Positions 2,930 to 63,639 of a stretch of DNA of 64,000 nucleotides are shown here, in pieces. The notes beneath the pieces were generated by a model. The model made no database searches and was not told the origin of the DNA. It saw only the letters and a program-made list of their open reading frames with translations. The stretch's first letter is position 1; every line of letters starts with the position of its first letter. This DNA is from an uncultured Clostridia bacterium (GTDB lineage: Bacteria; Bacillota; Clostridia; TANB77; CAG-508): assembly GCA_944390285.1 (NCBI GenBank), contig CALXPN010000001.1, positions 210,413 to 274,412 of the forward strand. Reading direction: 5' to 3'. The translations under genes and the position numbers were made by a program.

Positions 2930-4351
2930 CTATTTTTTATTTTTAGCATCTTCTTCTAGTAATTTATCAATCAAACCACAACATTCTCTACCTTCACCAC
3001 AGAATCTGTCTGTAACACAAGTTGAACCTAATCCCTTTCCTATAAGTGGTGCAACTTCTGATACTTGTTTTGCAATATCTTTTGCAATAAATCTTATTTG
3101 CCATTGTGCTTTATTACAACAACGCATTCTACATACCCATTGTATATTTCTAGCATTCATTGTTGTTACAACATTTAGCATTTGATTTCCTAAATAAAAA
3201 TATACTAAATCAGCTTCTTTAACACCTAACTTTTTAAATTTTTCTTTGACCTCTATATTTTTCTTAACTGCTTTCTCATATACATCATTTGCCTTAGCTT
3301 TTACTGTCACTGGTGTAATGTAATTATTCATATTCCACATAGGTAAAAATTCTGGTACTAATAATGCATGCATTCTGTGCCTTGTTAGATGTGTAAGAAT
3401 AGATAAAGAAATTGGAATTTGAAAACTAAAAGAAACTTGCTCAAGTTCTCTTCTAGATTCTTTATGCATAATTTCATACATCATCTTTTCTTTAGCTTTT
3501 TCATCTTTTTTTACTAATTTCTCTAAAATATTTTTAGCTGTTTCTTTTGAACATTGATAATGATACATTATCGCATTTTCAAGCACAACATCATCACTAT
3601 TTGGTGTATAACTTAATAATTTTGTTTTGTCTAAAATTTTTATCTCTGGTCTTGTGCTAACACTTTCTAAATATTCAAAACCAGAATTATAGTTTTCTTC
3701 TTGTTTTTTTATATTTGGAACTAAATATGGTACATTTTCTTTTACTATATTGTATAATTCTTCACCAACTTCTTTTAAATCCGGAATTTGACTTACAAAA
3801 CCATATTTTAGGTCTATAATCATTTTTTCAAGTCCTCTTGCATCTACACCCATAATAAAATTACTATGATAACTATATGGAAGTATAAATCTCGCATCTT
3901 CTATATCTACACCTTTATCTACAATTTCTCCATATGTATTAAATAACATTTTCATATGTTCTTTATATTCTTTTTTTAATTCTTCATTTTTTTCATGAAT
4001 TTCACCTGACTCATTTCTAAATTCCGGAACATAAAAACCAGCTTTTCTAAAATCTACTTCTCTTCTTGATTTTACTGTAAAAGAAGTTAATCTATATCCT
4101 ATTAATGTTTGTTCAACTATTGGTGTTACATCACACAAAGCAAAAACTAAATAATCATGTTCAATAATTGATTTATGTCCCATTTTTATAATTCTTTTAA
4201 TTAATTTTAAATTACTCTCATAATCGTTACAGCTTTCTAAAACTTCAATTACATTACCAGGAAATCTTGATAACTTTCCAGCAGCTGCTACATTTTGAAT
4301 TCTTTTTTCTAATTCATCTTTTTTACATCCACCTAATAATTCTATTTTCAT
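2930..4351 (-). CDS. tandem-domain ThyX (Thy1) family protein with Cys-rich C-terminus
   Basis: First half has GHKSIIEH...YRLTSFTVKSRR, a degenerate ThyX RHR..S..S.R motif. Second half has LTRHRMHALL. The 473-aa length fits two Thy1 domains. The tail contains CRMRCC and CGEGRECC clusters. Confidence 0.6.
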   Translation of the reverse strand: MKIELLGGCKKDELEKRIQNVAAAGKLSRFPGNVIEVLESCNDYESNLKLIKRIIKMGHKSIIEHDYLVFALCDVTPIVEQTLIGYRLTSFTVKSRREVDFRKAGFYVPEFRNESGEIHEKNEELKKEYKEHMKMLFNTYGEIVDKGVDIEDARFILPYSYHSNFIMGVDARGLEKMIIDLKYGFVSQIPDLKEVGEELYNIVKENVPYLVPNIKKQEENYNSGFEYLESVSTRPEIKILDKTKLLSYTPNSDDVVLENAIMYHYQCSKETAKNILEKLVKKDEKAKEKMMYEIMHKESRRELEQVSFSFQIPISLSILTHLTRHRMHALLVPEFLPMWNMNNYITPVTVKAKANDVYEKAVKKNIEVKEKFKKLGVKEADLVYFYLGNQMLNVVTTMNARNIQWVCRMRCCNKAQWQIRFIAKDIAKQVSEVAPLIGKGLGSTCVTDRFCGEGRECCGLIDKLLEEDAKNKK

Positions 4352-54489: not shown

Positions 54490-55380
54490 CTATATATTTT
54501 CGAAAAAGTCTAAATCTAATTTTTTTATTTTATATTCTGTTTCTGTATAGCATCCAACATTATATTTAATCATTAGTTTTACTAATTTTTCTCCATCTAT
54601 TAAAATAATATTTTGATTTTCGGCATATTGAATCGCTGGTTTTCCAAAATAACTTGTTGTAATAAATACTCCTTTTTTTATATTTTTACCAGCCATTGCT
54701 CCCACGAATCTTTGAAGTTCAGGTCTAGAAATTCCACTATCTTTATCAAATCTTTTTGTTTGAATATATATCGTATTTATTCCTAACTCATCTTCTAATA
54801 CAATTCCATCAATTCCTTCATCATTAGTCTTAGGAGTTACAGTAGCATTTTCTATTTTTCCATATCCCATTGCTGTTATTAATTTTACTGCCAAATTTTC
54901 CAAAAAGTCAGATGTTTGATTCAATATTTCTTGTAGCAATTCACTTTCTAATTCAGAATTTAGCTTCGTAATAGCATTATCGATTTCTTCTTGAGGTGTA
55001 TATTTATCATCTTCATTATCTATGTTTTCTTTTTTATTATGTATTTCTCCTTTAAATTTTAAAAAAGACTCAAATTTTGATAATTCATTATTATCTATTT
55101 TTATATTTTTTTTTAATAATTCAAGTCCATCTTTTGTAATAGAAAATATTCCTCTTTTAGAACTAGATATAACTCCAGCTTTTTTCAAATAAGTAGCTGT
55201 CCAACCTACTCTATTAGTAAATAAATTTCTTCCACTGTTCAATGTTTCTTTTTGCTCTAATTCACTAATATTGTATACTTTTATAATATAGTTTCTTATT
55301 TCTTGAATTGTATGTTCTTTCTTGTCTTTCAAAACATTTAACATATCATTATACATTTCATCATATTTAGGTATTGGCAT
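54490..55380 (-). CDS. mrr: Mrr-like restriction endonuclease (Mrr_N wHTH plus Mrr catalytic domain)
   Basis: N-terminal LFTNRVGWTATYLKKAGVISS wHTH. C-terminal IDGIV...IYIQTKRF, a PD-(D/E)xK variant (D...QxK) as in Mrr. Confidence 0.75.
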   Translation of the reverse strand: MPIPKYDEMYNDMLNVLKDKKEHTIQEIRNYIIKVYNISELEQKETLNSGRNLFTNRVGWTATYLKKAGVISSSKRGIFSITKDGLELLKKNIKIDNNELSKFESFLKFKGEIHNKKENIDNEDDKYTPQEEIDNAITKLNSELESELLQEILNQTSDFLENLAVKLITAMGYGKIENATVTPKTNDEGIDGIVLEDELGINTIYIQTKRFDKDSGISRPELQRFVGAMAGKNIKKGVFITTSYFGKPAIQYAENQNIILIDGEKLVKLMIKYNVGCYTETEYKIKKLDLDFFENI

Positions 55381-56155
55381 TTTCTTTCTCCTTTATTTCT
55401 TTATATCTTTTTATAGATAAATCTAAATATTCTTTTTCATTGTCTATTCCTATGTATTTTCTATTTAATTTATTAGCCACAATTCCTGTGGTACTGCTAC
55501 CACAAAACGGATCTAATATTAAATTATTTTCATGTGTTGAAGCTAAAATTATTTTTTCAAGTATTTCTAGTGGTTTTTGCGTTGGATGTTTTCCTTGTTT
55601 CTTTTCAGATGGTTTTGTAAGACTAGTTGTCCAAACATCTTTCATTTGTTTATTATCATTTAATTTTTTCATCAAATCGTAGTTAAATGTATATTTTACT
55701 TTTGGTAAATTTTTCTTTGCCCAAAGTATAGTTTCTGTTGAGTGTGTAAAAGTTTTACAAGCCAAATTTGGAGGTGGATTAGTTTTTTGCCAAGTTATAT
55801 TATTTATAATTTTAAATCCATTTTCTTCAAGTGCCATACCTATTGAGTAAATATTATGCAAAGTACCACTAATCCATATTGTTCCATTATCTTTTAAAAC
55901 TCTATGGCATTCTTTAATCCATTTTTTATTGAAATCGTGTTTATCTTTTAAAGAATCACATTTATCCCAATTTCCTTTATTAACACTAACCATTTTTCCA
56001 GACTTACAAGTAATTCCATTATTAGAAAGAAAATATGGTGGGTCTGCAAAAATTACATCTATACTTTTTTCTTCGAATTTTTTTAGTATTTTTAGAGAAT
56101 CTCCATTTATTAAATTAAAATCATTTTCTTGAAAGTAAAACTTCCCTTTATACAT
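55367..56155 (-). CDS. dpnA: N6-adenine DNA methyltransferase, DpnA-like (beta class)
   Basis: IFADPPYFLSNNG catalytic motif followed by C-terminal AdoMet motif ILDPFCGSSTTG. Position after dam, as in the DpnII cassette. Confidence 0.85.
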   Translation of the reverse strand: MYKGKFYFQENDFNLINGDSLKILKKFEEKSIDVIFADPPYFLSNNGITCKSGKMVSVNKGNWDKCDSLKDKHDFNKKWIKECHRVLKDNGTIWISGTLHNIYSIGMALEENGFKIINNITWQKTNPPPNLACKTFTHSTETILWAKKNLPKVKYTFNYDLMKKLNDNKQMKDVWTTSLTKPSEKKQGKHPTQKPLEILEKIILASTHENNLILDPFCGSSTTGIVANKLNRKYIGIDNEKEYLDLSIKRYKEIKEKENANT

Positions 56156-56167
56156 TTATTTCTCCAA

Positions 56168-57061
56168 TTAATAATTTGTTATTAGTAATTCTGAAATGGC
56201 TTTTCTTCCATTTCCTTTTGAATTAATATTTCTATTTGCTAATACTTCATTCAACTTAAATCCATCATATAGATCTACAAAAAAGTTATCATCTTTATTT
56301 GTGTTTTTAGGATTTGAATTACTTAACATTAACTTTGCTCCTTTTAAAGATAGTTCTTTATAAAATTTTCCTAATTTTCTTTGATCATCATCATTAAATT
56401 CTTCTTTAGTATATGAAGTAAATCCAGAAGTTGTATTTAAAGGTCTATATGGTGGATCAAAATAGATAAATGTATCTTTATTTGTATATTTTTCTGATTT
56501 TTTATAATCTCCACAATAAAAATCAACATCTTGAATAAGTTTTGACAAGTTTCTCAAATTCGTAGAATCACAAATTGTTGGATTTTTTGCATTATTAAAA
56601 GGAACATTAAATTTATTATTACTATTTACTCTATATAAACCATTAAAACAAGTTTTATTTAAAAATATAAATTCTGATGCTCTTTTAACATTAATTATTT
56701 TATCTTGTAACTCATAAGAATTATATTCAGTTCTTATTTCATAAAAATATTCTTTTCTTTTAGCATTTTCTAGACTTTTATATTTCTTTTCTTTTTCATC
56801 TAATTTAGTAATAAGTTCTTCAACATTATTTTTAGCAACTAAATAACAATTAATCAAATCAGCATTAATATCAAAAGCAATAGCATTTTCGATATTGTAC
56901 TTTTGAAGCACTTCTATTAGCATAGCACCACCACCAACAAATGGTTCTATATATGTTTTTATTTTTCCATCTGTTAATTCTGTTGGTAAATATTTATTTA
57001 TTTGTCCTATAAGTTGAGATTTTCCCCCAGCCCATTTTACAAAAGGTCTTATTTTCTCCAC
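56168..57061 (-). CDS. dpnM: Dam-family N6-adenine methyltransferase (GATC), DpnM-like
   Basis: VKWAGGKS, EPFVGGGA, FDPPY. GTG start 6 nt after GGAGG. Confidence 0.9.
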   Translation of the reverse strand: MEKIRPFVKWAGGKSQLIGQINKYLPTELTDGKIKTYIEPFVGGGAMLIEVLQKYNIENAIAFDINADLINCYLVAKNNVEELITKLDEKEKKYKSLENAKRKEYFYEIRTEYNSYELQDKIINVKRASEFIFLNKTCFNGLYRVNSNNKFNVPFNNAKNPTICDSTNLRNLSKLIQDVDFYCGDYKKSEKYTNKDTFIYFDPPYRPLNTTSGFTSYTKEEFNDDDQRKLGKFYKELSLKGAKLMLSNSNPKNTNKDDNFFVDLYDGFKLNEVLANRNINSKGNGRKAISELLITNY

Positions 57062-57205
57062 TTTCTTCCTCCATTAATACTAATTGAATAATTTATTTAT
57101 AGCATATTTATATCATACTTTTGTTTATATTTAAATACTATATATAAATAATTCTGACAATTTAAAATATTATTACAATTGATATAAGGTAAAAAGAAAC
57201 TCGTA

Positions 57206-57724
57206 CTAAAAAATTTGATCTTCTTTATTTTCTACTTTTTTTCCATCTACATATTTTACAATTTTAACTTCTTCTCTCTCTTTTCCTATTATTATGTGTA
57301 AACCCAATTTATATTTAAAATTAGCATTTGGATCTGTTAGTTTTTTCAATTTAATTATATCTCTTTTCAATTCTCTTGTGTTTATATTGTCATACATTTT
57401 AAATTCTATTACTAAAATATTCTTATTACTATCTTTTCCTCTTTTATGTAAAATAAAATCAGGATAAATATTTTTTTCATTTTCACTATCGTCTAAGATA
57501 TTTTTCTTATCAAAACCATCTCTATCATATTCACAATCAATGCACAAATCATCATATGTTTTAGAATATTTTTTATCAAAAAAAATATAAAAATATTTTG
57601 AAAAATGAAAAACTATATTTCTTTCTGTAGAATTATTTTGTATCAAATATTTATCTTTTTCGTACAATTTGTTCAACGACATATCAACTAATTCTAATAC
57701 TTCTTTAATTATTTTTTCTTTCAA
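57206..57724 (-). CDS. hypothetical protein with PD-(D/E)xK nuclease-like motif
   Basis: ERNIV..., IYPDFILH and ILVIEFK spaced as in E...PD...(D/E)xK restriction-endonuclease-fold proteins; 172 aa. Confidence 0.4.
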   Translation of the reverse strand: MKEKIIKEVLELVDMSLNKLYEKDKYLIQNNSTERNIVFHFSKYFYIFFDKKYSKTYDDLCIDCEYDRDGFDKKNILDDSENEKNIYPDFILHKRGKDSNKNILVIEFKMYDNINTRELKRDIIKLKKLTDPNANFKYKLGLHIIIGKEREEVKIVKYVDGKKVENKEDQIF

Positions 57725-57791
57725 TTTAATTTCTCCTATTTTTTATTTAATATATTGTTAAGATACATATGCTGATAATATTAAATAAATT

Positions 57792-58736
57792 TTATAAACT
57801 ACTTTTATTATTTATAATCTCAACAATTTTTTGTCCATGAATCTTTATTTTAATATCTGATAGAATTTTTAAATTCTTAAGTTCTGTAATATTTTTAGGT
57901 CTATATTTTACTAATTTTTCTAATTCATCATTATTAAAAATATAATATGCTGGTATATTCTTTTCTTTTGAAGTTTCTCTTCTAAAATCTTTTAACTCTT
58001 TTTTTAATATTTCTTCTCTATTTTCTTTACAGCTATCAGCAATTTTATTTAATGAATTTTCTAATGATATACTATTTTGTAACCATTTTCTTAATTCTTG
58101 TTCATAATCTCTATCTATAATCTCATTGTAATTATTCATAATTCCAAATGCATTTTCTTTCATTTCCTTTGCTGTATATCTCATATCTTTATCTGTATTA
58201 TTTACATCATTTTGTAAATATTTTACTAAATTATCTGAACGAACTATTTTATTTTTAATTTCTTTAGGTGCAGATTTTATATCTAATATACTTTTTGGAT
58301 TAGTCATTACAACTATGTATTTACACCATTTATCAAAATTTCTCATTTGTAACTTATTAATTAGTTTTGTATTTTTACTATTCCAAATTTTCTTGAATAT
58401 TTCTATATGTCTTTCAACTTGTCTTATTGGAGAATAAATTCCCTCTCTTACTTTTTTTCTATTATATGTATATTCTCTAATAAATTCGCCTCTACTATTA
58501 ACACTTATATTTCCTACCAGATTTTTACATTCTATAAAATACATACTTGCTGGGGTAATAACTATATAGTCTATTTGTGCCGTTAAATCTTCATATTTCA
58601 TATTAATATCATGTAATACATACATTCCAATATTTGCATTTTTCAATTCAAATTCAATTTCTTTTTCACCTTTTAATCCTAATTCACATAATTTCAACTT
58701 TTGTCCGAATTTTATCATTACTTGGAAATTCAGCAT
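57792..58736 (-). CDS. NERD-domain protein with HRDC-like C-terminus (5' end apparently frameshifted)
   Basis: GEKEIEFELKN...LTAQIDYIVITP...FIECKN NERD core. C-terminal IPAYYIFNNDELEKLVKYRPKNITELKNLK is HRDC/HhH-like. Confidence 0.7.
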   Translation of the reverse strand: MLNFQVMIKFGQKLKLCELGLKGEKEIEFELKNANIGMYVLHDINMKYEDLTAQIDYIVITPASMYFIECKNLVGNISVNSRGEFIREYTYNRKKVREGIYSPIRQVERHIEIFKKIWNSKNTKLINKLQMRNFDKWCKYIVVMTNPKSILDIKSAPKEIKNKIVRSDNLVKYLQNDVNNTDKDMRYTAKEMKENAFGIMNNYNEIIDRDYEQELRKWLQNSISLENSLNKIADSCKENREEILKKELKDFRRETSKEKNIPAYYIFNNDELEKLVKYRPKNITELKNLKILSDIKIKIHGQKIVEIINNKSSL

Positions 58737-58824
58737 TTATTTTCTTTAAGGCTTTAATTTGATATTCTAATTCACTATCTTGCTTATAAAAAATTGTTTT
58801 ATCGAATTTTTTAAATAATTCCAT
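58684..58824 (-). pseudogene. detached N-terminal reading frame of the NERD gene
   Basis: ATG 58824 lies 8 nt after GGGAG. The 46 codons (MELFKKFDKTIFYKQDSELEYQIKALKKINAEF...) end at TGA 58684-58686. They overlap the NERD ORF in a frame offset by one nucleotide. Confidence 0.5.
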
Positions 58825-58891
58825 AAAGTTTTCTCCCATTATTTAATACATAATTTATATCATAAAATTTTTAAAGTCTCAATAAGTATAA

Positions 58892-58919
58892 CAAAAGACA
58901 CTTTAAAAAGTGTCTTTGT
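58892..58919 (-). terminator. hairpin with U-tract on the minus strand (possible end of an RT read-through transcript)
   Basis: AAAGACAC/GTGTCTTT stem (58894-58901 / 58910-58917). On the minus strand it is followed by TTTTGTTATACTT. Confidence 0.45.
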
Positions 58920-58923
58920 GGAA

Positions 58924-59282
58924 GCGGGTATTCATTGTTTTTGGCTTTGTAGCCGTATTTTGAGCATTTTTTGTTTCCCAATACGTTGACCAATTGAAAT
59001 AATAACAAATAATTTTGAATAATGTTATATAGCTTTATTCGGAATTTCCGAATTTTCCTTTCCTAAAAATTGTGCATTTGCACGTTTTTTAGGAATATCA
59101 AAAAACTTTTGTCGGTTTTTCCGGTAAAAGTTTTCGAGCTGTCGCAAAATTTGCGACAGTTAATTTTCAAATTTTCTTGTGTAATTCTTGTGTAGTTCAT
59201 TTTAAATTTTTGTAAATTTATGCATTTTTTTAATAAATTATAAAATCCATTTTAAATTTTTGGGGGTACCCGCATTTTTTTT
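58924..59282 (+). ncRNA. candidate structured ncRNA: inverted-repeat-bounded multi-hairpin element downstream of and antisense to the RT
   Basis: Closing helix GCGGGTATTC (58924-58933) / GGGTACCCGC (59264-59273), then A+T8. Hairpins at 58943-58954, 58954-58985, 59037-59053, 59060-59095, 59102-59134 and 59137-59161. All wobble pairs are G-U on the plus strand. No ORF. Confidence 0.45.
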
Positions 59283-59317
59283 AAATGGATTTACATTTTT
59301 ATTTTCTGTTAAATTTG

Positions 59318-60280
59318 CTATTTCTGTAAATTAACACTATTTTTTAATTGTTTCTTTAACCCTTGATAAGCATTTTTTACAGACAATTCCGAAAAATTAG
59401 CTAAACCTACTAGAGAATTTTTCAAAGAATTATCTATTTCTTTAATGTTTTTTACTTGAGCTAACTTTCTTTTTATTTTTAATCTTGTTTTATTTCCAAC
59501 AACTAATTGGTGCTCTGGTGAAATTACAAATCCAGTTATCTTCTTATAATCACTAGTGCTATATCTTATAGTTTTATTTTTGCTTATTTTTTGACCATAT
59601 TTTTTTACAATACCTTTTAGTTGTTTTTCTTCTTCAAAACTTATTTTTCTATTCGTAGACAAAGTTATATCATCTACATATATAGAACAAATTAACCCAT
59701 GGCATTTACAATAACCATAAACTTCATCAAACATATCTAAATTAGCTAAATATGATAGTATTTGACTTGTTGGTGTTCCTGATGGTAAATGATTTCTAAT
59801 TTTTATATGTTTTAATTTCATGTACTCAAATACATCATCATCAATATTTACATTATCAGAATCATAATTAATTGTTGTAATATCTGTACATAACTTTGCT
59901 ACATCAGCAGACATTTTTAATTTTCTATAAAAAAAATTATATACTTTATCTCTATGCGTATTCGGAAAAAACTTACTCATATCTAACTTTAACATACATT
60001 CAGAATTTATATGTGTTAAAGCATTATCATAAGCTGACCTTCCTTTTATTCCTGAAAAAACATATTCTGGAAATTGTATCTGATAAAGCTTATTTAAAAT
60101 TCTTTTTTGTAGTAGTTTTAATTTAAAATTAGGTTTTTCTAATAATCTTTTTTCTTCACTTATACAAACTTTGTATTTATTTAAAATAAGACCTACTTCC
60201 TCTGGAGTAGAGCTTATTAAATGATATAAATCTCTTTTTCTTTTTAAATTATATAACTGACAATTTTCAAAATTTATCAT
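59318..60280 (-). CDS. retron-type reverse transcriptase
   Basis: RT motifs KRLLEKPNFKLKLLQKRI (1), SGIKGRSAYDNALTH (2), LKLDMSKFFPN (3/A), LPSGTPTSQILS (4/B), IYVDDITLS (5/C), KKITGFVIS (retron VTG-like box). 320 aa with no extra domain. ATG 60280 follows AAGGAG. Confidence 0.8.
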   Translation of the reverse strand: MINFENCQLYNLKRKRDLYHLISSTPEEVGLILNKYKVCISEEKRLLEKPNFKLKLLQKRILNKLYQIQFPEYVFSGIKGRSAYDNALTHINSECMLKLDMSKFFPNTHRDKVYNFFYRKLKMSADVAKLCTDITTINYDSDNVNIDDDVFEYMKLKHIKIRNHLPSGTPTSQILSYLANLDMFDEVYGYCKCHGLICSIYVDDITLSTNRKISFEEEKQLKGIVKKYGQKISKNKTIRYSTSDYKKITGFVISPEHQLVVGNKTRLKIKRKLAQVKNIKEIDNSLKNSLVGLANFSELSVKNAYQGLKKQLKNSVNLQK

Positions 60281-60344
60281 AAATTCTCCTTTTCCTTTTA
60301 TAAGCAAATTAAAATTTAATTTACTTATAAAAAGAAAAGGTTAA

Positions 60345-60548
60345 TTAGTTTTTAGTGAAAAATTCAACAGCAATTTCAATTACTATCTTTGCTGTTTTGA
60401 TAACAAACTTAGTACTTATCAAAATCTCAAAACCGATAAGCGTTTTTACTAATTTCATTATCTTTTCTTCACTATAACCACAAGCTTTCCCCACTATCAT
60501 TATGCCAAATATCAAATAAACTATTGTGTTTGAGATTTCCATAATCAT
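60345..60548 (-). CDS. 67-aa membrane peptide upstream of the RT
   Basis: Strong RBS AGGAGGTG 5 nt before the ATG. One clear TM helix (TIVYLIFGIMIVGKACG) plus an amphipathic C-terminal half. 64 nt upstream of the RT gene on the same strand. Confidence 0.6.
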   Translation of the reverse strand: MIMEISNTIVYLIFGIMIVGKACGYSEEKIMKLVKTLIGFEILISTKFVIKTAKIVIEIAVEFFTKN

Positions 60549-60582
60549 TTACACCTCCTTTTTTTAGATTAGACTTATCAAA

Positions 60583-60960
60583 TTACATTAGTGCACTTAA
60601 TGTAATAAGTAAGGCCCCTTCAATTCTAATCTTAGAAAGTGTACAGCTTGCGAGTGGTTCCTAATTAACTTTACCTCAGAAGTCCCTTCAAGAAATAAGA
60701 TAACAGTTCTACAAGAACCATTAAGATTATTTCTAAAGCCATGGCCAACTTTACAAAAAGAATTTTGAAAGTCAAACATTATCTACACCTAATTTAGTTA
60801 GTGTTTTTAGTTGATGTAGGCCATGCTGTTAAGAACTTCTATATATGTATATAGTACTTTATTAAATAAATTTTCTACATACAAAATATGCAGGATATAT
60901 AAATATCCTTCGCTATTTCTAGCCAAACAAGGGGACTTATAATCGAGCCTCGTGAGGAGT
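60583..60960 (-). ncRNA. candidate retron msr-msd-like ncRNA upstream of the membrane-peptide/RT genes
   Basis: Promoter-proximal inverted repeat TAAGTCCCCTT (60939-60929) / AAGGGGCCTTA (60620-60610), 10 of 11 complementary, with a G immediately 3' of the left arm. Internal stems at 60892-60909, 60748-60772 and 60691-60734. Terminal hairpin at 60583-60605. Confidence 0.4.
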
Positions 60961-60966
60961 GCTTTT

Positions 60967-60995
60967 ATTATATGACCATACCAAAGAAAAATCAA
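60967..60995 (-). promoter_or_regulatory. sigma-A promoter driving the candidate ncRNA / RT operon
   Basis: On the minus strand: TTGATT (60995-60990), 17-nt spacer, TATAAT (60972-60967). Confidence 0.5.
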
Positions 60996-61102
60996 GAACA
61001 TTTTTTTATTTCTTATAAAACTTCATGTACATTTCATAAATCTATAGCAATTTTTGTCTAAATATAGTATAATTAGCACATAAAAATTATATGGAGGCTA
61101 AA

Positions 61103-61843
61103 ATGAATAAATTAGAAAAATTTGTACAAGAAGCAAAAGAATTTTCACAAAAAGACATAACTTCTCGAGACCCAGCATTTATTGCTTGGAATAATTCTTT
61201 AATTAGATTTTTAGAAAAAAAATATGGAACTAACTCTTCGACAACAAAAAATTTTAAAAAAAGAACTTATTCTTTAGGAGCATACGCTCTTGGAACACCT
61301 GAAAGTAGTTTTATAAAAGTTTATAAAAGAGATATGCAAGTAACGTTACGTGAGTTAGAAATACTATTAGAAGAAGAATTAACAACTGAGGAAATTGAAA
61401 AACAACCTACATCTAATGAAAAAATAACTACCAAAAAAGTATTTATCGTTCATGGACGTGATGATAGTAAAAAATATGAACTTTCAGGATTTTTATATGA
61501 ACAAGGTTTAACTCCTATAATTTTGCATGAACAAGTAAATAATGGTCAAACAATCATTGAAAAAATTGAAAATAATAGTGATGTAGCCTGTGCTATTATT
61601 CTATTAACACCAGACGACGAAGGTAGATTAAAATCATCAACTAATGAATTAAAAACTAGAGCTCGCCAGAATGTAATTTTTGAAGCAGGATATTTTATGG
61701 GTAAATTAGGTAGAAACAGAACAATATTATTAAGCGGAGTAGAAGAAAAAATGTCAGATATCGATGGCATTGTATACCTTGATATCAATAATTATAAATC
61801 ATCTTTATTACAAGAACTAAAATCTTTAAATCTAATAAATTAA
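61103..61843 (+). CDS. TIR-like (COG4271/CAP12-type) nucleotide-binding domain protein with unknown N-terminal domain
   Basis: C-terminal KKVFIVHGRDDS...PIILHEQ...GQTIIEKIE...ACAIILLTPDD...ARQNVIFEAGYFMGKLGR matches the bacterial TIR-like/SLOG-type pattern. ATG 61103 follows GGAGG. Confidence 0.65.
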   Translation: MNKLEKFVQEAKEFSQKDITSRDPAFIAWNNSLIRFLEKKYGTNSSTTKNFKKRTYSLGAYALGTPESSFIKVYKRDMQVTLRELEILLEEELTTEEIEKQPTSNEKITTKKVFIVHGRDDSKKYELSGFLYEQGLTPIILHEQVNNGQTIIEKIENNSDVACAIILLTPDDEGRLKSSTNELKTRARQNVIFEAGYFMGKLGRNRTILLSGVEEKMSDIDGIVYLDINNYKSSLLQELKSLNLIN

Positions 61844-61858
61844 AAAAGGGGATAAAAT

Positions 61859-62155
61859 ATGGATAACAATATAAAAATAATGTCTATACAAGAAGATATG
61901 AAAGAAATTGAAGCAGTATTAAATAATAATATCACTGATATCGATATCCAAATCTTAAAAAAATTGCACAGAAAAATAGATAGTAAATACCAAGCTTGCA
62001 TAAAAGACTGGAGCAAAAGCTTATATTGTTGGATACCAGATTTTGGATTTAGTTACGATCTTTTAGACACAACTTCTTTAATTGAAAATTTAGAATCTAT
62101 GTTATGTAAACTTTCTTCGTATTCTATGGGATTTAATGATATTAAAAACAAATAA
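61859..62155 (+). CDS. hypothetical 98-aa protein co-transcribed with the TIR-like gene
   Basis: Starts 16 nt after the TIR-like stop and is preceded by AAGGGGA. No motif recognised. Confidence 0.5.
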   Translation: MDNNIKIMSIQEDMKEIEAVLNNNITDIDIQILKKLHRKIDSKYQACIKDWSKSLYCWIPDFGFSYDLLDTTSLIENLESMLCKLSSYSMGFNDIKNK

Positions 62156-62188
62156 ACGGGAGGTTTTTATCCCGTTTATTTGTTTTTT
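62150..62188. terminator. bidirectional terminator shared by the TIR-like operon and the Fic gene
   Basis: 12-bp stem AAATAAACGGGA/TCCCGTTTATTT covering both stop codons; T6 follows on the plus strand. Confidence 0.8.
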
Positions 62189-63150
62189 AAAATTTTCCAA
62201 GTTCCTGTTTTAGGAGAACCTATTCTTTTAATAATTTTCTTATCTTTTAAATTTTTTATATTATAAGAAATTCCATCTCTAGTTAAACCTAATTTTTCAG
62301 CCATTTCATTTTGTGTAATATTAGGATTCATCTTTATTAAATTTATAATTTTTTCTTCTGTAGTTTCTTTTGTTGAATTCTGCTCTATAATTATTTTATC
62401 TATTGTTTCATAAATCATTTTCAACATAAATTCTATAAACTCAGTTGATTCACCAATTTTATTACAATTATCTATAATTTTATAATACTCTTCTTGATAT
62501 TGTTTTATTAAACTTTCAATAGGTACATATTCGAAAATCTCTTTCCATTTAGAAAGTAAAGCTGATTGCCAAAGTCTAGCCATCCTACCATTACCATCTC
62601 CAAAAGGATGTATAAAAACAAATTCATAATGAAATACAGAAGAAAGTATTAAAGGATGAACTATATCCTTAGATTCTTTCATCCAAGAAAATAAATTTTC
62701 CATTAATTCTGGAACTAATTTTTCTGATGGTGCAACAAATATACATTTATCTCCATCATAAACACCTTCACCATGACTTCTAAATCTTCCGCTCTCTTCT
62801 TCTACTAAAAATGTCATTATTCCATGAACTAATTTTAAATCTTCTATAGAATATGGATTTATTTGAGAAATTTTATTGTATGCTTCATATGCATTTTTTA
62901 CTTCTTGAATATCCTTTTTATCTCCAATTACCATTCGACCATTTATTACATCTTCAACTTGAAATAAAGACAATTGATTATTTTCAATAGCTAGAGAAGA
63001 ATGTATAGAATTAATTCTATTTTGTTTTCTTAATTCTGGCTTTTTATTTAAATTTATATAACTATTTATTTCTCCAACTTTTTCCATTATTTTTGAAACA
63101 TAGTCTAACATCTTATCAGTTATTTTATATGGTGGTATATATTTATCCAT
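62176..63150 (-). CDS. Fic-family protein with C-terminal wHTH
   Basis: Fic motif HPFGDGNGRMARL. C-terminal ITQNEMAEKLGLTRDGISYNIKNLKDKKIIKR is a wHTH. Confidence 0.85.
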   Translation of the reverse strand: MDKYIPPYKITDKMLDYVSKIMEKVGEINSYINLNKKPELRKQNRINSIHSSLAIENNQLSLFQVEDVINGRMVIGDKKDIQEVKNAYEAYNKISQINPYSIEDLKLVHGIMTFLVEEESGRFRSHGEGVYDGDKCIFVAPSEKLVPELMENLFSWMKESKDIVHPLILSSVFHYEFVFIHPFGDGNGRMARLWQSALLSKWKEIFEYVPIESLIKQYQEEYYKIIDNCNKIGESTEFIEFMLKMIYETIDKIIIEQNSTKETTEEKIINLIKMNPNITQNEMAEKLGLTRDGISYNIKNLKDKKIIKRIGSPKTGTWKILKNK

Positions 63151-63220
63151 TTTTCCTCCTTCAGTAGTTTTATCTACACCTTTATTATACTACATTTAAC
63201 AGATTATATCAATATTTATT

Positions 63221-63256
63221 GTGTAGTTTATTATGTAGTTTATTGTGTAGTATTTA
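63221..63256. repeat. three tandem 12-nt repeats upstream of the Fic gene
   Basis: GTGTAGTTTATT / ATGTAGTTTATT / GTGTAGTATTTA. The last unit forms an 8-bp hairpin with TACTACAC (63257-63264). A further inverted copy TACTACA lies at 63188-63194. Confidence 0.7.
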
Positions 63257-63258
63257 TA

Positions 63259-63639
63259 CTACACTTTTATTCTCTCAACTATAAACAAATCTGCAGGTGC
63301 AAATTGAAAGTTATCTAATTCGTTTTTAGAAACCCACTTATAATCTTCATGTTCTAATAATCTAATTTCTCCATTTATCTTTTTACATTCTAAAGCAATT
63401 AAATTAATATTTTTTTCTGGATAATTAAATACTTTTTCTGACAAATAAGATTTTACTTCTATATCAATATCTAATTCTTCTTTTATTTCTCTTACAATTG
63501 CATTCTCACGTGTTTCATTAGGTTCTATTTTTCCTCCTGGAAATTCCCATAAACCACCTTGAGCTTTCTTTAAATTTCTTTGAGTTATTAATATTTTTCC
63601 ATTTTCATCTTTTATTACTGCAGCTACTACATTAATCAT
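63259..63639 (-). CDS. mutT: NUDIX hydrolase, MutT-like (8-oxo-dGTP diphosphatase family)
   Basis: Nudix box GGKIEPNETRENAIVREIKEELDI; 126 aa. Confidence 0.8.
   Translation of the reverse strand: MINVVAAVIKDENGKILITQRNLKKAQGGLWEFPGGKIEPNETRENAIVREIKEELDIDIEVKSYLSEKVFNYPEKNINLIALECKKINGEIRLLEHEDYKWVSKNELDNFQFAPADLFIVERIKV

Follow-up and report, generated by a model that had tools for sequence, protein, structure and literature searches.

A probable two-gene Type VI retron lacking the helix-turn-helix gene in an uncultured Clostridia bacterium

We analysed a stretch of 64,000 nucleotides from an uncultured Clostridia bacterium (contig CALXPN010000001.1, positions 210,413 to 274,412; hereafter the window, numbered from its first letter), which encodes a retron-type reverse transcriptase (RT). 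In our reading, to which we assign a probability of about 0.7, positions 61005-58894 on the minus strand form a retron of the Type VI lineage, about 2.1 kb long, that is mobile, self-contained and made up of two genes. Its first gene is a small open reading frame (ORF) for a small protein (SP), its second the RT, and the gap between the SP stop and the RT ATG is 64 nt. The window thus holds a Type VI retron that fails one defining feature of its type, the helix-turn-helix (HTH) gene, and does so lineage-wide. SP is the most plausible effector of this retron; by analogy with two recent preprints and from the anatomy of the locus, it would be a toxin acting at the membrane. To our knowledge, Type VI was the last retron type without a mechanism before these two preprints.

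Type VI was originally defined by a Cro/C1 HTH protein, with small accessory proteins in some loci, and no non-coding RNA (ncRNA) was found (Mestre et al., 2020, PMC7736814). In Retron-Vpa2, the msr-msd and a small toxic protein share one hybrid RNA in which the ribosome-binding site (RBS) of SP is sequestered, inverted repeats flank the SP coding sequence (CDS) and SP translation needs the multicopy single-stranded DNA (msDNA); a conserved pair of 7-nt direct repeats, one in the msd and one in the riboregulator, is the proposed basis of control by msDNA (Zhang et al., bioRxiv 10.1101/2025.10.22.683967). Retron-Sen3 comprises an SP that acts as toxin, an HTH protein as antitoxin, and a conserved ncRNA, with IR1-IR2 flanking the SP CDS, and the HTH is found in about 78% of the Type VI entries (Garcia-Rodriguez et al., bioRxiv 10.64898/2026.04.27.721009). 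The published order is ncRNA-SP-HTH-RT (bioRxiv 10.1101/2025.10.22.683967; 10.64898/2026.04.27.721009). The SP clusters described for Type VI are cl2075, cl2760, cl3272 and cl3897, next to a heterogeneous 'Large' set. An initial annotation of the window, made from the letters alone, saw no recognisable classical retron effector beside the RT. This view is outdated because the 2025 and 2026 preprints show a small-protein toxin for Type VI: the RT belongs to a type whose effector is just such a small protein embedded in RNA.

The type assignment is carried by the RT. Its ORF was listed as 59318..60307 with a TTG start, and the ATG at 60280 gives a protein of 320 aa that matches the start in all homologues. 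The initial annotation had rightly described a 320-aa retron-type RT with YVDD and ITG boxes and no extension. Indeed, the translation contains YVDD, the retron-type NAxxH (as DNALTH) and K-ITG-F, an I-for-V variant of the VTG box whose T and G are invariant in an alignment of 22 homologues, and Pfam recognises RVT_1 only, without an extra domain. Classification with profile hidden Markov models, which the same annotation had recommended, gave RT_VI as the best PADLOC model (4.2e-64, 214.5 bits, profile positions 21-266 of 279) and RT_III-A as the second (111.7 bits); the 25 best models listed are all retron RT models, and RT_IV is not among these 25. NCBIfam returned sub-threshold retron RT matches only. 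For calibration we used three canonical Type VI plasmid loci (Azospirillum, Aeromonas and Staphylococcus), each with an HTH gene annotated right beside the RT; they also served as sequence stand-ins for Retron-Vpa2 and Retron-Sen3, which were compared through their published descriptions. The RTs of these plasmid loci reach 263-329 bits on RT_VI and are 30-32% identical to the window RT across ~90-96% of its length. Given the lower score of the window RT, profile score and pairwise identity place it in the Type VI RT family, on a divergent branch. There are 307 homologues at E <= 1e-10, the closer ones being full-length.

Relatives of the RT (34-94% identity) were fetched with their surroundings, 103 loci in all, of which 80 lie in genomes, 15 in metagenomes and 8 on further contigs; almost all of them belong to uncultured Clostridia, Bacilli, Oscillospiraceae or Faecalibacterium sampled from gut or rumen. 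Clustering of every ORF up to 2.5 kb from the RT across this set showed three unrelated families of small ORFs as the only conserved neighbours, which lie upstream of the RT on its own strand, with median distances of 40-77 nt: family A in 53 loci, family B, to which the window SP belongs, in 30, and family C in 7. Together they accompany the RT in ~90 of the 103 loci, and no conserved gene lies downstream of it. The small ORF, which the initial annotation had named as the only co-oriented partner and had proposed to check for co-occurrence with RT homologues, is therefore the sole conserved partner of this RT.

That annotation had described a 67-aa ORF with the RBS AGGAGGTG, 64 nt before the RT ATG. 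The ORF is found as described, with a very strong Shine-Dalgarno (SD) region at 60559-60552, but every relative has the second ATG (60542) alone, making a 65-aa product likelier. Family B proteins occupy the same position in 30 of the fetched loci and measure 64-68 aa. A single-sequence search with SP found only two close relatives, whereas a profile search reached 85 clusters, nearly all of 64 aa and all unannotated; Pfam, PADLOC and NCBIfam gave no domain above threshold for SP, the nearest being DUF7070 at 17.8 bits against a cut-off of 27. Thymine makes up 49% of the second codon positions, a hydrophobic bias. The 'one clear TM helix' of the initial annotation is roughly right: residues 3-21 (65-aa numbering) form an N-terminal segment resembling a transmembrane (TM) helix, whose 19 residues average 1.72 on the Kyte-Doolittle scale, and AlphaFold2, run on 41 family B sequences, predicts helices at 5-20 and 25-37 with a pLDDT of ~82. 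The C-terminal half of the protein is uncertain.

The gene that should stand between SP and RT is missing. Type VI calls for a Cro/C1-type HTH (cluster 2_1) just upstream of the RT or overlapping it, and no such gene is present; HTH_VI matched none of the seven ORFs scanned within ~3 kb, the scan covering ORFs of ~60 aa or more in the tail, whereas the HTH proteins of the three plasmid loci score 100-120 bits on this model. The 64-nt gap is filled by a conserved hairpin, leaving no HTH gene. The absence extends to the relatives, 101 of 103 having no HTH. In the two others, whose SPs are of family C, an XRE-type HTH gene of 79 aa lies ~700 nt upstream of SP, ahead of the ncRNA (L014:3059-3298 and L015:3066-3305). 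A jackhmmer search seeded with these two proteins and run over the 103 loci turned up no further one within 2.5 kb. We considered them as the displaced Type VI HTH and rejected this, as they score 32 bits on HTH_VI, about equal to their score on capH, and are confined to these two loci; they may be displaced or recruited regulators.

Could the window simply hold a decayed, non-functional Type VI locus that has lost its HTH? The missing gene is the one that defined the type in Mestre et al. (2020), and one relative (L001) has lost its msr-msd part to a tRNA-Leu gene. Nonetheless, the RT is full-length with all motifs, and promoter, RNA helices, SP and RT are conserved in ~100 loci, across 34-94% identity and many contexts. 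Because the HTH is absent lineage-wide and the rest is maintained, we regard the absence as a property of the lineage and decay of the window copy as very improbable. The initial annotation had also allowed for a described retron type whose effector is missing from a decayed locus; here the putative effector is in place, and it is the HTH that the whole lineage is without. In L001 itself, SP and RT are intact, the msr-msd is absent (3285-3737) with a tRNA-Leu(caa) in its place, and the last ~40 nt before the SP RBS are kept, so that this locus is possibly a decayed copy or an insertion beside the tRNA.

Upstream of SP, the sequence has the makings of a retron ncRNA (Table 1). The -35 and -10 hexamers of a sigma-70-type promoter stand at the same alignment columns in 16 relatives, and the ~410 nt that follow are conserved in blocks. 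The predicted fold of 60270-60962(-) has a minimum free energy (MFE) of -183.6 kcal/mol (z = -6.1 against shuffles). Pairing and covariation were counted in 17 aligned sequences, where 76.6% of cells are paired, against 40-48% with the partners slid, and 52 pairs change on both sides; none of 500 shuffles attains the observed values. An Rfam scan of 56-64 kb at E <= 1 gave chance matches only and no retron ncRNA family, and the ncRNA signature has no exact counterpart in viral contigs. As far as the fold and the pairing counts can tell, flanking inverted repeats, msr hairpins and an msd stem-loop are all present, with approximate a1/a2 limits. In duplex folding the 5' strands of the closing stem pair with 60686-60674 in nearly all relatives; ACGAGGCTCGA is nearly invariant, and the stem covaries between sub-clades (GUCCC:GGGAC versus GCCCC:GGGGC). 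The GNRA-looped hairpin that follows UUUGG keeps a GNRA loop throughout (GAAA, GUGA, GCGA, GAGA, GCAA), and GG at 60924-60923 is a candidate for the priming (branch) guanosine. Of the msr-like hairpins the first is 87% paired, with four pairs altered on both sides. The candidate msd hairpin varies in length and sequence among relatives between conserved flanks.

The riboregulator arm would tie this ncRNA to SP. Direct repeats 1 and 2 (DR1, DR2) vary in step between sub-clades (GAAGGGRC, GAGGGGC, AAGGGGC). The inverted repeats IR1 and IR2 form a helix across the SP CDS that is 98.7% paired, with one pair altered on both sides, and two helices between the anti-RBS strand and the SP RBS region are 94% and 100% paired and almost invariant. 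Inside the CDS, a helix between the YSEE and FFT codons is 99.4% paired and shows a compensatory change in L083; coding and RNA structure both seem to constrain the SP nucleotides. In addition, GAAAGCTTGTG of the SP CDS pairs with CAAGCTG of the ncRNA. The single promoter and the long-range helices spanning ncRNA and CDS suggest that both lie on one transcript. The hairpin over the RT SD is 93.5% paired, with five pairs altered on both sides, and has no U-run after it. Beyond the RT stop, a ~400-nt tail with several short palindromes is conserved in the nearest relatives L096-L098 only, with a deletion in L097, and 58918-59317 has no Rfam match.

Table 1. Positions in the window of the elements of the retron cassette, followed by those of the neighbouring genes.
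Feature	Position	Strand	Remarks
Sigma-70-type promoter	60967..60995	-	TTGATT, 17-nt spacer, TATAAT; best regional match, 10/12
Non-coding 5' part: msr-msd-like arm and riboregulator arm	60549..60962	-	From fold and pairing counts
Closing stem, 5' strands	60931..60957	-	CCTCA (60957-60953), ACGAGGCTCGA (60953-60943), a1-like AAGTCCCC (60938-60931)
UUUGG, then hairpin GCUA-GAAA-UAGC (GNRA loop)	60912..60927	-	Hairpin 98.8% paired
Three msr-like hairpins	60839..60908	-	GGATAT/ATATCC; CTGCAT/ATGTAG; CTATATA/TATATAG; all in MFE fold
Long variable hairpin, candidate msd template	60737..60827	-	AGCATGGCC...GGCCATGGCT; MFE fold
DR1 and closing stem, 3' strands	60674..60691	-	DR1 TTGAAGGG (60691-60684); GGGACTT (60686-60680), TGAGG (60678-60674)
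IR1, 5' strand of long-range helix closing on SP stop	60661..60672	-	AAAGTTAATTAG
Anti-RBS strand	60625..60642	-	ACACTTTCT (60642-60634), AGATTAGA (60632-60625)
DR2, within riboregulator hairpin	60616..60623	-	TTGAAGGG
Anti-RBS helix, 3' strand	60551..60573	-	TCTAATCT (60573-60566), SP SD AGGAGGTGT (60559-60551)
SP, small hydrophobic protein, putative toxic effector	60345..60548	-	67 aa from 60548; 65 aa from conserved ATG 60542
IR2, overlapping SP stop codon	60336..60348	-	CTAATTAACCTTT; pairs with IR1
Intercistronic hairpin, 3' arm overlapping RT SD	60288..60340	-	24 pairs; RT SD AAGGAG (60291-60286)
Retron reverse transcriptase, 320 aa	59318..60280	-	Type VI lineage; RT_VI match
3' non-coding tail	58894..59317	-	Terminator-like hairpin 58917-58894 at end
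Mrr_N+Mrr_cat endonuclease	54490-55380	-	Defence island
N6_N4 DNA methylase	55367-56155	-	Defence island
D12 Dam-type methylase	56168-57061	-	Defence island
PD-Lambda-3_A-like protein	57206-57724	-	Defence island
NERD+HRDC protein	57792-58736	-	Defence island
PDC-S35/CAP12-type TIR protein	61091-61843	+	PDC-S35 3e-74; CAP12/Pycsar TIR 7e-37
98-aa ORF beside TIR gene	61859-62155	+	
SoFic, Fic and winged HTH	62176-63150	-	
NUDIX protein	63259-63639	-	

The same architecture recurs around the other two SP families. Their RT partners likewise have RT_VI as best model (245 bits for family A, 225 for family C), all three families are hydrophobic, and family A has a strong central TM helix (Kyte-Doolittle KD19 2.95). 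The order of elements is common to the three: repeat complement, DR1, IR1, anti-RBS, DR2, RBS, SP, and IR2 at the stop. Families A and C differ in primary sequence, yet the offsets of their elements from the SP RBS are near-fixed, with the repeat complement at ~-300, DR1 at ~-105 to -130, the anti-RBS at ~-55 to -85 and DR2 at ~-35 to -63. IR1 directly follows DR1 and is complementary to the region of the SP stop codon (TGTGCTGGTG in 44 of 44 family A sequences, AATTGTTAATTA in 7 of 7 of family C), and most of the A and C loci inspected also have (U/A)UGG and, after it, a GAAA-looped hairpin. DR1 and DR2 are identical within each family and match the complement of its a1-like strand: GGGAAGTC/GACTTC in A, TATGGGGCA/GCCCCA in C, and GAGGGGC/GCCCC. 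At the level of sequence, this matching of repeats and a1-like strand is a three-way co-variation across SP families. The exact-match scan for repeats and complements was clear for A and C and noisy for the A+T-rich family B, because other 7-mers compete there and the anti-RBS helix uses G-U pairs; for B the alignment was relied on instead. Among the canonical loci, the Aeromonas plasmid (L105) has ATTGGGGCGA twice upstream of SP in the exact-repeat scan, and the Staphylococcus plasmid (L106) has GAGGGG twice upstream of SP when read by eye, where the scan listed no repeat of at least 7 nt. One may picture, in a large Firmicute lineage of Type VI retrons, a conserved RNA chassis (closing stem, direct repeats, IR clamp and anti-RBS) that has accepted at least three unrelated membrane-peptide toxins as an exchangeable module, with the hybrid RNA and the RT silencing the toxin in the absence of any HTH and msDNA releasing it. 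We put this forward tentatively, as a proposal whose odds fall a little short of even.

RT type, gene order, SP conservation, RNA helices, repeats, the lack of an HTH and the independence from neighbours come from the sequences themselves; how the retron would work we draw from the two preprints and from the anatomy of the locus. One promoter would give a ~680-nt hybrid RNA, made constitutively, that holds the RT template and the SP CDS on the same molecule, with the RT gene after it. At rest SP would be silent, its SD held in the anti-RBS helix and its CDS clamped by IR1-IR2, and the RT would make little or unstable msDNA. Upon infection msDNA might build up, for example stabilised by phage recombination proteins or nuclease inhibitors, and its 5' end, complementary to the G-rich repeat, could invade DR2 in the riboregulator and free the RBS. 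SP would then be translated, insert into the membrane and damage it, and the cell would be stopped (abortive infection). As no HTH is encoded, repression would have to rest on RNA structure, perhaps bound by the RT, and on turnover of msDNA by the host. Our preferred answer to what stands in for the HTH is that control probably acts at the RNA level only.

The main rival to that answer follows the logic of Retron-Sen3 with another partner: SP would be made constitutively and neutralised post-translationally by the RT or by a host membrane or chaperone factor, and msDNA would not be the switch. Retron-Sen3 indeed makes ssDNA and SP constitutively and controls its toxin post-translationally, the RT is physically associated with the HTH in both systems studied so far, which makes a contact between RT and SP conceivable, and AGGAGGTG is a very strong SD. 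On the other hand, 101 of the 103 loci have no antitoxin gene, nothing points to an interaction of RT and SP, and the conserved anti-RBS helix and IR1-IR2 clamp favour translational control. We therefore consider the Sen3-like scheme unlikely, and continue with control at the RNA level.

A number of observations weigh against our reading of the locus. Neither of the two studied Type VI retrons is viable without its HTH, so a system lacking one may work differently; for the HTH-less lineage we infer msDNA, toxicity and defence alike from the preprints and the anatomy. DR1 of the window is base-paired with the a1-like strand and not in a loop, and the identity of the priming a1/a2 stem among the helices decides whether it gets reverse-transcribed. 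A canonical reading would put the branch G in the conserved UUUGG and make DR1 the a2 strand, whereas in the Vpa2 model DR1 has to lie within the msd. Being near-invariant, the anti-RBS and IR helices are conserved but offer little covariation. The AlphaFold2 model of SP is moderately confident (pLDDT 66.7 overall, ~52 in the C-terminal half). Moreover, dN/dS of SP against relatives is 0.4-1.1, which gives no verdict because the RNA helices constrain synonymous sites, and the most conserved peptide motifs (VGKACG, YSEE, FFTKN) fall on conserved strands of RNA helices; selection at the protein level is thus not cleanly demonstrated.

These last two points, together with the lack of an above-threshold domain match to SP in any library, could also be taken to mean that the small ORF is untranslated, an extended structured retron ncRNA that is open by chance, with the true effector unlinked or absent. 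Several lines of evidence speak for translation. The SD AGGAGGTGT and the ATG are invariant and correctly spaced in 17 of 17 sequences. The frame is open in an A+T-rich context where the other two frames have 14 and 7 stops, and an ATG-initiated ORF of at least 64 codons on the SP strand arose in only 53 of 2000 shuffles (2.7%) of the 725-nt region. Insertions and deletions are mostly whole codons; the exceptions are C-terminal frameshifts in L083/P0216 and in P0210. Three unrelated hydrophobic ORF families occupy one slot, and the homologous slot encodes a proven toxin in both Vpa2 and Sen3. An untranslated ORF is quite unlikely on this evidence, and we retain SP as a translated protein. In the frameshifted family B members (L083 SP 3814-4002; P0210, P0216), endings of the kind ...KRVYHKIIR and ...KRVYYQNFH replace the FFTKN end, and L083 keeps the RNA helix of the affected codons through a compensatory change.

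The retron sits in a defence island (window 54490-63639). The nearest relatives, L096-L098, are homologous to the window between 61005 and 58915 only, at 89-94% nucleotide identity, and the contexts of the relatives vary, from integrase and resolvase with RelB/YoeB to Bro-N, polysaccharide genes and housekeeping genes. Because contexts differ between loci, the cassette moves as a unit, independent of its neighbours. One of these is a divergently oriented TIR gene, and the initial annotation had suggested that the effector might be encoded there. On such a view the two promoters face each other's upstream regions, the retron would sense and the TIR protein, with the 98-aa ORF, would kill. The gene is adjacent and matches defence families (PDC-S35, CAP12/Pycsar TIR). 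However, PDC-S35 is a single-gene candidate system, homology with the nearest relatives stops short of the TIR gene, and the TIR gene and 98-aa ORF are absent from all 103 related loci by tblastn. The Fic, NERD and PD-Lambda-3-like genes are likewise absent from these loci, the sole exception in the neighbour search being a weak, unrelated Fic-like match in L035. As regards RT-TIR systems, the RT has no TIR fusion and reaches 78 bits on the RT-TIR_XII models. Since the TIR gene never co-occurs with relatives of the RT, it is best seen as a separate defence gene, and its being the effector is scarcely credible. Elsewhere, two loci whose RT is 68% identical to that of the window have a 255-aa ORF 12 nt past the RT stop (L102:5258-6025 and L103:4389-5156), with no Pfam, PADLOC or NCBIfam match; this cassette adjoins a resolvase, an integrase and RelB/YoeB, and the ORF could be an extra component or unrelated cargo.

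The two preprints differ in where control lies, with translational control through msDNA in Vpa2 and a post-translationally acting HTH antitoxin in Sen3, and in both the HTH is indispensable. The surprise of the window is therefore not its tiny effector but the dispensability of the HTH, needed for viability in both published systems. A widespread natural lineage that keeps the hybrid RNA, the repeats and the small toxin without the HTH lets one ask straight away which parts suffice; should it defend, an RNA switch alone can restrain a toxin. Such loci abound in Clostridia and Bacilli of gut and rumen and may escape annotation pipelines that demand both RT and HTH; the SP families involved are unannotated in that Pfam, PADLOC and NCBIfam hold no model for them. 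For retron engineering, a 2.1-kb Gram-positive two-gene cassette with a putative msDNA-responsive riboregulator could be a useful part.

Among the closest known systems are Retron-Vpa2 and Retron-Eco12 (the 'Large' lineage). As in the window, an RT of the RT_VI family is encoded last, after a hybrid RNA in which the SP RBS lies in a stem, the 3' end of the SP region is tied back to the ncRNA by inverted repeats, and a pair of G-rich repeats lies near the msd end and in the riboregulator. In Vpa2, however, the HTH represses reverse transcription and its mutation is toxic, whereas the window, from a low-G+C Firmicute, has a conserved hairpin over the RT RBS in the place of the HTH gene. The Vpa2 SP has 55 aa and a C-terminal hydrophobic core; the window SP is unrelated, more hydrophobic and 65-67 aa long, with its TM-like helix at the N-terminus. 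Retron-Sen3 (cl2075 lineage) shares with the window a structured ncRNA within ~300-400 nt upstream of SP, an RBS in the basal stem, an IR1-IR2 helix and a long variable internal stem-loop as candidate template, the last matching that of Vpa2 as well. Unlike in the window, which has neither HTH nor another candidate antitoxin, the Sen3 HTH antitoxin binds the RT and neutralises a constitutive SP, and the SP families are unrelated. The Staphylococcus plasmid locus (NZ_CP118062.1, L106) resembles the window in its RT (32% identity over 96% of the length), in the order ncRNA, small ORF, RT, and, by eye, in having GAGGGG twice with a CCCC-containing complement further upstream; it differs in a 99-aa HTH (100 bits on HTH_VI) directly before the RT and in an SP of 47 aa with a largely hydrophilic N-terminus. 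Type I toxin-antitoxin systems such as hok/sok and fst offer an analogy rather than membership, with a small hydrophobic membrane peptide whose mRNA is locked by RBS sequestration and long-range 5'-3' pairing until the RNA rearranges. The window has no evident antisense RNA antitoxin; its toxin is linked to an RT, and the proposed activator would be reverse-transcribed ssDNA. Finally, the sister type, Type IV (Retron-Eco6/Ec48), falls in the same broad RT clade as the window RT (clade 3 of Mestre et al.) and has, like the window, a membrane-directed effector, but there the effector is a much larger 2-TM protein encoded by a separate gene outside the ncRNA.

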